From: a virus
Lineage: Duplodnaviria > Heunggongvirae > Uroviricota > Caudoviricetes
Length of the DNA stretch: 36,232 bases
IMG/VR virus record: IMGVR_UViG_2684623127_000008
Strand: one strand, 5' to 3'
In this document: positions 26,601 through 29,600 of the stretch, in pieces
Layout: every line of letters starts with the position of its first letter
Numbering within the stretch: the first letter of the stretch is position 1
Made by a program: the position numbers

Positions 26601-29600
26601 ATGAGCTGCCCATCGATATGGGCAGCTCTATCTGCACTGCTCATTAATATACTTCTGGGTTCCTTCCAGTTGTTTTTGCATAGTGATCAGCCTCTCTCTG
26701 AGGGTGAAATAATCCCGTTCAGCGGTGTCTGCCAGTCGGGGGGAGGCTGCATTATCCACGCCGGAGGCGGTGGTGGCTTCACGCACTGACTGACAGACTG
26801 CTTTGATGTGCAACCGACGACGACCAGCGGCAACATCATCATGCAGAGCATCATTTTCAGCTTTCGCATCAGCTAACTCCTTCGTGTATTTTGCATCGAG
26901 CGCAGCAACATCACGCTGACGCATCTGCATGTCAGTAATTGCCACGTTCGCCAGCTTCAGTTCTCTGGCATTTTTGTCGCGCTGGGCTTTGTAGGTAATG
27001 GCGTTATCACGGTAATGATTAACAGCCCATGACAGGCAGACGATGATGCAGATGAGCAGAGCGGAGATAATCGCGGTTATTCTGCTCATACCTCACTCTC
27101 TCTGACCGTTCCGCCAGCTTCTTTGAATTTTGCAATCAGGCTGTCAGCCTTATGCTCGAACTGACCATAACCAGCGCCCGGCAGTGAAGCCCAGATATTA
27201 CTGCAACGGTCGATTGCCTGACGGATATCACCGCGATCAATCATAGGTAAAGCACCACGCTCTTTAATCTGCTGCAATGCCACTGCGTCCTGGCTTTTGG
27301 GGGAGAAGTCTTTCAAACCAAGCTGTTTACGGTAAGCATCCCACCAGCGTGAAAGAAGCTGATAACGTCCGGCGGCTGTTGATTTGAGTTTGGGGTGTAG
27401 CGTGACAAGTTTGCGAGGGTGATCGGAGTAATCAGTAAACAGTTCGCCGCCAACAATAACATCATAACCGTGGTTACGTGTCGGTTGTCGCCCGTTATCC
27501 GTTCCTTCTGACCACGCCAACATATCGAGGAAGGCTTTACGCTGAGGATTAAGATTTTGCATTTTTCACCCCTGTCAGTCGTTCCCAGAAGTACGTCAGT
27601 GCAACCGAACCCATCGCACCACTAATCCCCGCTGTCGCGAGAATCATGTAAATACTGAATCCACTTTCGATGCTGATCAGGCCACCAATAACACCGGTGA
27701 ATCCTGATACCACTATTTGAGCCAGAGCATTTATCCAACTCCACGTTGCTTTACTCTGCTTCACATCTATCAGGTAGCGGACCAGACCGCCCCAACCTGC
27801 GATGATCAGCAAAACGAGCCAGAACGCTCCGGCAAGGCTCTCTTTTTCGTGCATATGAATAGCCAATGTTTCGCCGCCGACAAAAGGCCGGGACGTTAAA
27901 TGTCAGAAATCAGGCTCACGGGGTAATTTAACGACAAAGCACGGAGTTGATGCTCCCCACAAGCCTGGAATAAAAAAGCCAGCATGTAGCTGGCAACAGA
28001 GGGCTAAGCAATATCAACTCAACAGCTGAAGACCCCCTGGCTGGGGTAGGTTGGAAGGCTACTCACCGTTCAGAAACAGAAAAGCCCAAGGCTTTAAACC
28101 TCGGGCTTGAATTTGGATTACTGCCAGTGCGTACAACATTGGCAAAATATCAGATTTACATAAAATATATGATTTTTAATCCAGTTTTGCAATATCTTGC
28201 TGTGAAAATGTGGTCTTTTGTTTTGAACGTGTTTTCGTTAAAAGCAATAAAGCTTGGCTATCAAGCTGTAGAAAAATGTGTTTCATTGCAACCCAGCGTT
28301 CAGTAAATGTCTCAGACCAGTTTTTTGATGTCACTCCCACCAGTGATGCCAGCTCCTGGTATTCATAGGTCTTACGCCCTGCCAGCTCGTTCTTCACATC
28401 CTGTGCCGCCAGCCAGATCAACTTCTTCAAACGTTCCAGTGTCTTACCTGCAATTTTCCTGGTACCCAACAGAGTCTTAAACTCGCTCCATGCCCACTGC
28501 GTTATGGTGACCTGATGTTCCCAGCGAACACTTTCGCTGTAACTCCACAGCAACCACGCTTTCTGATGTTCTTCGAGAGACAGAACCGCGCGGCGCCATG
28601 ACGAGGTTGAGAACTCAACCTGGCTGACCAGTGCAATGGATGAACCTTTTGCGTACGACTGCTTACCGGAAATCGGCGGATTATCCAGCGTAATCATCCT
28701 GCCAGTTACCTCATCCAGAATGCGCGGCTTCTTTCGTTTGTATGTACCAGTATCAAATTGTGCATGCTCCAGCCAGGCTTCAAGCTGTCCTTTCGTTGCT
28801 CCGCTCAAATCAGCGGTAGCCACAATGAGTTGCTCGCGGACATACTGTAAATATTGGGTATTCATGCGGCAGCTCCTTTCAGTGTTTTGGCGTAATTCTT
28901 CAGTATCCGGTAATCGGTCAAAACAGAACCAGGAAAACGATATAAGCGCAGGCGCATCCAGCGGTGGCGAAGACGTTCTGCCATATAAGACTCAAACATC
29001 ATTCATTCCCCAGTTCGGTGATGGTCAGCTCCAGCTTCCCACCTTTGGTAACGGGCATCTTCACAACACGGTAATCAACGACCTGAGCATCATCCAGCCA
29101 GAAACCTGCTTTGGTGAGTGCGTCAAAAGCGGCTTTTTGCAGATTATCCAGGTCACGGCGACGGCGATCCGGCATGTGGCACTCAATACGGATTTTCACT
29201 GGCATAGCCAGGCCGATATCCAGCATGGAGCCTTTGATGATTCGGGCGACGTTATCACGGTATGCCTGCCCTTCTGCGCTGATGTGCGTGCGCCCGCGAT
29301 TATGCCGGTAGTAGCGATTATTGCTCGGAGGCCAGGGTAATGTGATGCTGTAGGTATTCACGCCTTAATAACCCCCTCTTTCAGCCAGATAACCTGTGTT
29401 CTCGCCATACCTTCCAGCGCGCATTCTTTTGCATATGCAGCATCGACAAAATGTGTGCGGCGGTCGATTTCGTCGTGGCAGGCAGAACATGCAATGGTGG
29501 CAATCAAGTCTGGCGGTTTGGTACCGGTGCCGCACAATCCAGTCAGCCGGATATGTGCCAGTACAGACGTTTCAGGGTTGCCATTACATACGCCAGGGAT

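Follow-up and report, generated by a model that had tools for sequence, protein, structure and literature searches.

Since the 1980s, sigma70-dependent pausing and antitermination have been studied with the Q protein and late promoter pR' of phage 82 as a standard system. Three families of Q proteins have been distinguished, namely Q21 (PF06530), Q-lambda (PF03589) and Q82 (PF06323); of these, Q-lambda carries a zinc ribbon and Q21 functions without NusA (Yin et al. 2022, PMC9388147). The wild-type transcript of 82 pR' starts with AAA, and its pause element is a -10-like sequence that is nearer to consensus than that of lambda and includes an extended -10 (PMC5001585). The same study described a GCC discriminator at +15-17, pausing at +25 (a natural U) and +26, and a 1-nt insertion at +18 that shifts a G onto the pause site, which places a G at +24 in the natural sequence (PMC5001585). 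Wells et al. 2016 (PMC4914094) located the 82 Q-binding element (QBE) between -35 and -10 and the pause at +25, and described loading of 82Q with the assistance of NusA. According to a passage in PMC7547250 that cites Schechtman et al. 1980, a short RNA is made from the phage 82 late promoter; StxS provides a precedent for a regulatory role of such short RNAs (PMC7547250).

We compared these systems with a locus in a 36,232-nucleotide stretch of viral DNA (IMG/VR record IMGVR_UViG_2684623127_000008), referred to here in its entirety as the window. An earlier note on this DNA had proposed the layout of a Q-dependent late switch with a Q protein of a non-lambda family. The sole Pfam match of the protein, to PF06323, and the fit of the promoter to 82 pR' support that proposal at the level of sequence, and the range given for the switch, 27972-28865, has as its exact limits the end of the second U-run and the Q start codon. 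The element is very probably (probability about 0.93) the antitermination switch for the late genes of a lambdoid prophage of the phage 82 type. Its features and neighbours, listed in the order of transcription, are as follows.

28999-29361, minus strand: rusA, upstream of orf45
28862-29002, minus strand: ylcG-like orf45, upstream of Q
28176-28865, minus strand: Q antiterminator gene of the Q82 type (229 aa, 0 Cys, 4 His)
28187-28192, minus strand: -35 hexamer of pR', TTGCAA, inside the last Q codons
28170-28186, minus strand: 17-nt spacer of pR', AACTGGATTAAAAATCA, in the region of the 82 QBE
28164-28169, minus strand: -10 hexamer of pR', TATATT, identified by sequence match
28157, minus strand: probable +1, the first A of AAA, placed by the published initial AAA of 82 pR' (PMC5001585)
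28141-28152, minus strand: putative sigma70-dependent pause element, consisting of extended -10-like TGATATTTT (+6 to +14) and a GCC discriminator (+15-17)
28132-28133, minus strand: site at which pausing and Q loading are expected, +25 (U) and +26, placed by the published 82 pR' coordinates
28072-28108, minus strand: terminator 1 (T1), a hairpin at +50 to +76 (AAGCCCGAGGUU-UAA-AGCCUUGGGCUU) with a U-rich tract; predicted RNA of ~80-85 nt
27972-27994, minus strand: terminator 2 (T2), a hairpin at +164 to +180 (GCCAGC-UACAU-GCUGGC) with U6; predicted RNA of ~187 nt
27549-27866, minus strand: holin (Pfam PF16083, E = 8.2e-22; PHROG 785; Sakai ECs_1621 annotation)
27086-27562: endolysin, after the holin and followed by Rz/Rz1 and bor

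The Q protein and its prophage context

In Pfam, the 229-aa protein matched PF06323 (Phage_antiter_Q) with E = 1.4e-94 and 316 bits (cutoff 25). The alignment covered profile positions 1-217 of 220, and was thus full length. PF06323 was the sole match at E <= 10; PF03589 (lambda-Q) and PF06530 (Q21) were both absent, and the profile search against Q families that the earlier note had called for matched no unrelated enzyme family. PHROG 304 ('anti-termination protein Q-like') was matched with E = 1.5e-108, and none of the NCBIfam models matched the protein. In a DNA search, the record of phage 82 (X92588) was found with 98.4% identity. The protein shares 225 of its 229 residues with phage 82 Q (X92588) without gaps; the four mismatches are conservative and are all located in the C-terminal tail, at or near residues 204, 210, 217 and 223. 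Membership in the Q82 family is indicated by the full-length PF06323 match, closeness to the prototype, gene position and, at the sequence level, promoter layout.

The ORF in the Q position had been described as encoding 229 aa with no cysteine, and hence as unable to carry a zinc-binding motif of the lambda-Q type. Both descriptions were correct: the ORF contains 0 Cys and 4 His, and the zinc ribbon of lambda Q is documented (PMC9388147). The protein has neither of the marks of the lambda-Q family (a PF03589 match and the Cys-based zinc ribbon 'arm'), nor the PF06530 match at E <= 10 that would assign it to the Q21 family. Of 120 close homologues, 68 lack Cys altogether, the others have scattered single Cys, and no Cys position is conserved across the 120. 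These findings indicate that the lack of a zinc site is a trait of the Q82 family; the zinc ribbon is absent from the 229-aa protein because this family does not have that insertion.

Searches of the PDB with the single sequence and with a profile, Q-lambda chains included, gave no match, and apparently no Q82 structure is among the entries searched. A first AlphaFold model, based on a shallow alignment (38 sequences, 75-96% identity), was discarded (pLDDT 50, pTM 0.33). Repeating the homologue search from distant phage members of the family gave a deeper alignment, and the resulting model had pLDDT 78.5 and pTM 0.68, with most values for residues 82-222 above 85. The three best structural matches in a fold comparison of this model were AlpA, Q-lambda and Q21. 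These matches bear on the published debate between homology and analogy of the Q families.

Q closes the nin region and immediately precedes the lysis genes, in the order ninB-like, ninE, ybcO, rusA, ylcG, Q, holin, endolysin, Rz/Rz1. The longest ORF of the holin starts at TTG 27866, and the RefSeq start is ATG 27854. Elsewhere in the window, int and an xis-like gene are followed directly by O, P, a ren-like ORF, emrE, a serine recombinase and the nin genes. The spacer between Q and holin matches its counterpart in prophage Sp8 of E. coli O157:H7 Sakai at 100% identity; in Sp8, the gene at the Q position is ECs_1620, annotated in RefSeq as 'phage antiterminator Q'. Over the rest of the window, identity to other O157:H7 chromosomes is 100%. 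The motif TTGY-N6-TTGY, the CII box, occurred 4 times in the window vs. ~8 expected, a count that is uninformative by itself.

The state of the prophage raises the possibility that the switch is an inert relic, i.e., that the immunity and early region has been lost, Q is never expressed, and transcripts from pR' always terminate. The window contained no cI, cro, cII or N and no immunity region, and an IS3-family element breaks the late region downstream of bor. The gap agrees with the reported absence of CI and Cro from Sakai Sp8, which showed no excision or circularisation, replication or packaging in experiments (PMC2669165). Since cI, cro and N are missing from this Sp8-like prophage, Q probably has no normal supply. 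Taken together with the inactivity of Sp8, the missing immunity region suggests a switch that is intact in sequence and probably lacks its normal trigger in the host. Given the defects of Sp8, the switch may never fire in its present host. An inert relic is nevertheless less likely than not in view of the Q ORF, which is full length and 98% identical to functional Q82, and of the spacer, which 810 of 5426 complete E. coli genomes carry, 687 of them at >= 99% identity. The base changes in the T1 stem described below, which keep its pairing, likewise suggest continuing constraint. A relic would moreover concern the use of the element in one host, and is compatible with its identity as a phage-82-type switch.

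The late promoter pR' and its pause element

The promoter TTGCAA-17-TATATT, which had been reported immediately downstream of Q, was found at 28192-28164 on the minus strand; it overlaps the 3' end of Q, the last codons of which contain the -35 hexamer. The match to consensus (9/12) was not above chance, with 2 sites found vs. 1.9 expected in shuffles. We took pR' as real because it is identical to the characterised 82 pR' and is conserved in relatives, not because of its match score. The -35 hexamer and the next 11 bases of the spacer are identical to X92588, which ends at the Q stop codon. One base differs from phage 82, 4 nt upstream of the -35 hexamer.

With +1 at 28157, the initial transcribed sequence is AAATCTGATATTTTGCCAATGTTGT, which has TG at +6/+7, TATTTT at +9 to +14, GCC at +15-17, G at +24 and T at +25. 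All of the stated features of 82 pR' fit this sequence, the comparison beyond the Q stop codon being with published verbal descriptions rather than with phage 82 sequence. The -35 hexamer, the -10 hexamer and the pause element were invariant in 4 E. coli variants. In the early transcript, a hairpin was predicted at ~+13 to +37; it showed no consistent recurrence in relatives.

The cassette was kept at the same spacing in nine other phages of the Q82 family: 434, vB_EcoM-606R7, two Klebsiella phages, CobraSix, phiES15, Morganella IME1369_02, Eeyore and Aeromonas pAEv1818. Their Q proteins are 30-90% identical to the one studied here. Each cassette consists of TTG(C/A)AA, a 17-nt spacer, a -10 resembling (C)ATAT(A/T)T, the start, and TG(A/G)TA(T/A) at equal distance, and a hairpin-plus-U terminator comes after the pause element. 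In Eeyore, the promoter is located ~30 nt past the Q stop codon, indicating that conservation of the promoter is not merely a by-product of coding constraint. The full Q82-type cassette is thus conserved at fixed spacing across phages whose Q proteins are only ~30% identical.

Two terminators between pR' and the holin gene

Two hairpins with U-runs had been noted before the holin gene, and both were recovered, at 28108-28072 and 27994-27972 on the minus strand. Both have the form of an intrinsic terminator, in which a GC-rich hairpin on the transcribed strand leads directly into a U-rich tract. The T1 hairpin (28108-28082) has a stem of 12 pairs and a loop of 3 nt, is followed by UUCUGUUUCU, and has a dG of -17.8 kcal/mol. 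The T2 hairpin (27994-27978) has a stem of 6 pairs, 5 of them G-C, and a loop of 5 nt; it is followed by UUUUUUAU, which extends to 27972, and has a dG of -10.7 kcal/mol. When the transcript from +1 to +192 was folded, both hairpins formed in the minimum-free-energy structure as well as in the centroid. Terminator-like sites were enriched (6 found vs. 1.7 expected). A literature search for a published 't82' terminator sequence, by name and by exact sequence strings, found none.

Among E. coli variants with 96-99% identity, T2 was invariant. T1 had one change in the loop and three substitutions in the stem (C to U opposite G, G to A opposite U, and C to U opposite G). All three stem substitutions preserve pairing, suggesting that constraint is still acting on T1. 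A homologue of T1 was found in Klebsiella phage ST11-VIM1phi8.2 at equal distance from pR', and a T1-homologous hairpin in ST899-OXA48phi17.1 lies farther downstream of pR'.

The relatives differ in the region of T2, and their comparison leads to a second alternative, in which T1 alone is controlled by Q and T2 is a passenger of the holin module (for example, the terminator of a former upstream gene) that forms no second barrier. Homology with several Klebsiella phages and mEp237 starts at ~27981, inside T2, and runs into the holin gene. In mEp237, the equivalent hairpin comes just after an inserted gene, mEp237_056, and downstream of a different type of Q; most relatives of the Q82 family have a single terminator near the pause site. 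These observations favour the passenger reading. Whatever its origin, however, T2 lies on the pR' transcript in the sense orientation and has a canonical GC stem and U6. At the position of T2, the stems in ST11-VIM1phi8.2 and mEp237 are wholly different, and after them come the same TTTTTTAT and the conserved holin leader. That position and U tract have been kept in these two phages while the stem was replaced argues for selection on terminator function. ST11-VIM1phi8.2, whose Q is of the Q82 type, has three sense-strand terminators between pR' and holin. In the late operon of lambda, too, tandem terminators were reportedly described by Luk and Szybalski in 1983. We therefore regard a purely passive T2 as improbable. 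In our reading, T2 is a genuine terminator, carried along with the holin module, and would form a second barrier here.

Proposed mechanism and comparison with known systems

We infer promoter activity, pausing, termination and antitermination at this locus from its near-identity to phage 82. In the phage-82-type switch proposed here, sigma70 RNA polymerase would start constitutively at pR' (+1 = 28157, minus strand). Retained sigma70 would re-bind the extended -10-like element (+6 to +14), and the complex would scrunch and pause at +25. In the absence of Q, polymerase would escape from the pause and terminate at T1 (~+80) or, failing that, at T2 (~+187); the product would then be a short leader RNA only, with the holin, lysis and morphogenesis genes left silent. 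When present, Q would bind the QBE in the promoter spacer and engage the paused complex with the help of NusA. It would then travel with polymerase as a stable subunit that shields or extends the RNA exit path and so keeps the terminator hairpins from acting. Polymerase modified in this way would pass T1 and T2 into the late operon, with holin as the first late gene released.

The reading in which the ORF encodes an unrelated protein, and promoter and hairpins are chance consensus matches, fits the promoter scan taken by itself (2 sites vs. 1.9 expected) but has a negligible probability, being refuted by the Pfam match (E = 1.4e-94), the 98% identity to Q82, a protein with characterised biochemistry, the agreement with each published feature of 82 pR', and the presence of the same cassette in nine other phages.

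The switch at this locus shares its logic with the Q/pR'/tR'/6S RNA system of lambda, i.e., a Q protein, a constitutive promoter, a QBE, a sigma70-dependent pause, a terminator and the lysis genes. NusA is needed by both lambda Q and Q82 (PMC9388147). The proteins themselves differ: lambda Q (PF03589) has a zinc ribbon, whereas the 229-aa Q has neither a zinc ribbon nor Cys, and no sequence similarity between them was detectable. The pause is at +16 in lambda, vs. +25 in the 82 type (PMC5001585). Phage 21 Q (PF06530) and Pseudomonas AlpA likewise have no sequence similarity to the 229-aa Q.

StxS and lambda 6S RNA are short RNAs that arise from termination downstream of pR', and the 82-type layout should similarly give an abundant short leader. 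No Rfam family matched the leader RNA, and we know of no regulatory role for a leader of the 82 type. By analogy with StxS, a constitutive pR' in a prophage without cI and cro might continuously produce a ~80-nt leader, together with a ~187-nt form from read-through of T1, that acts as a regulator in trans, and T2 might be a structurally conserved, holin-linked fail-safe that silences the lysis genes under any Q family. We offer this combined proposal as speculation and consider it quite doubtful.

Phage 434 (OL657226, 'Q82-like') has a Q that is 87% identical, the same -35, a -10 of TATACT, and a similar pause element at the same spacing. Homology to phage 434 stops at ~+15, beyond which that phage has a single terminator of its own and then different genes; judged from the sequences, the divergence after ~+15 is a typical mosaic joint. 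Comparison with the Klebsiella phages and mEp237 showed that the second terminator of the present locus belongs to the holin module.

The closest system is that of phage 82. The two are alike in protein (225/229), in upstream gene order (orf151-orf56-orf96-rus-orf45-Q in the phage 82 record) and in the -35 and adjacent spacer, and the start, pause element and pause-site bases found here fit the published description of 82 pR'. The phage 82 sequence used for comparison, X92588, ends at the Q stop codon, upstream of the positions of T1 and T2. Phage 82 is a viable phage, in contrast to the present prophage without cI and cro. Because the protein is the classic phage 82 Q (98%) and the promoter is the dissected 82 pR', the layout is a textbook one rather than novel. 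It has little weight as a discovery, in that the system has long been studied and this copy is already annotated as 'phage antiterminator Q' in RefSeq. At the sequence level, the switch is an already known one: a near-exact copy of the phage 82 Q, pR' and terminator arrangement, carried by a defective O157:H7 prophage.

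Sequence elements around the late promoter

The early part of the transcript from pR′, the minus-strand late promoter, is predicted to form a hairpin whose 5′ arm is the GCC discriminator.

28121-28145, minus strand: predicted hairpin (UGCCAAUGUUGUACGCACUGGCA), approximately at positions +13 to +37 of the RNA from pR′

Similar arms were present in some relatives, such as the Q82-family phages 606R7 and KpST899, and absent in others. Two distant members of the Q82 family, phages Eeyore and Aeromonas pAEv1818, have TTGCAAAATGCAACAAAAT as their promoter spacer (L013 1230-1290; L014 1170-1230), which includes a TGCAA direct repeat. 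This repeat could be the Q-binding element of the Eeyore/pAEv1818 subfamily.

Two sites antisense to pR′ and directed into the Q antiterminator gene were also observed on the plus strand (28139-28200).

28139-28166, plus strand: promoter-like site TTGGCA-16-TAAAAT, 10/12 matches, antisense to pR′
28187-28200, plus strand: CII-box-like TTGC-N6-TTGC, overlapping the pR′ -35 element

The phage 434 record annotates the same CII-box-like sequence as a CII site/paQ. The prophage has no cII gene, and the count of this motif in the window was not above chance.

Holin leader and translational start

Homology of the holin module with Klebsiella phages and mEp237 begins within terminator 2, upstream of holin (window 27867-27981; L010 1284-1421; L011 1290-1421). 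The U tract of this terminator and the ~110-nt holin leader are kept across phages of differing Q types, which suggests that a conserved 5′ UTR element precedes this holin family. Translation of the holin ORF may begin at either of two codons, TTG at 27866 or ATG at 27854 (MAIHMHEK...), a pattern reminiscent of the dual-start holin/antiholin motif in lambdoid S genes; in RefSeq the start is placed at the downstream ATG.

Early region, mobile elements and comparison with Sakai Sp8

At 32539-36232, integrase and an xis-like ORF directly adjoin replication genes O and P, followed by a ren-like ORF and emrE; the immunity region and the early-left region are absent from the prophage. The replication genes are separated from the nin region by a serine recombinase gene and emrE, which is the DLP12-like arrangement (emrE-ybcK).

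35090-36232: integrase, truncated by the window end
34864-35100: xis-like ORF
33936-34760: replication gene O
33238-33939: replication gene P
32539-32925: emrE
30768-32294: serine recombinase, 508 aa; Sakai counterpart ECs_1615, annotated 'phage recombinase'

The late region contains an IS3-family insertion sequence downstream of bor. It belongs to the IS629/IS1203 type, the name IS1203 being taken from the RefSeq annotation of another copy. A separate Rfam match, to IS009, lies at the tail-fibre end of the prophage.

24887-26100: IS3-family insertion sequence
25774-26100: its orfA
24887-25777: its orfB
25703-25819: its ALIL frameshift pseudoknot (Rfam match)
160-358, minus strand: IS009 (RF02111), 229.5 bits, full length

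Sakai Sp8, a prophage of E. coli O157:H7, has different ORFs at the position of the IS3-family element. It has been published as being without CI and Cro, in agreement with the missing immunity region of the window.
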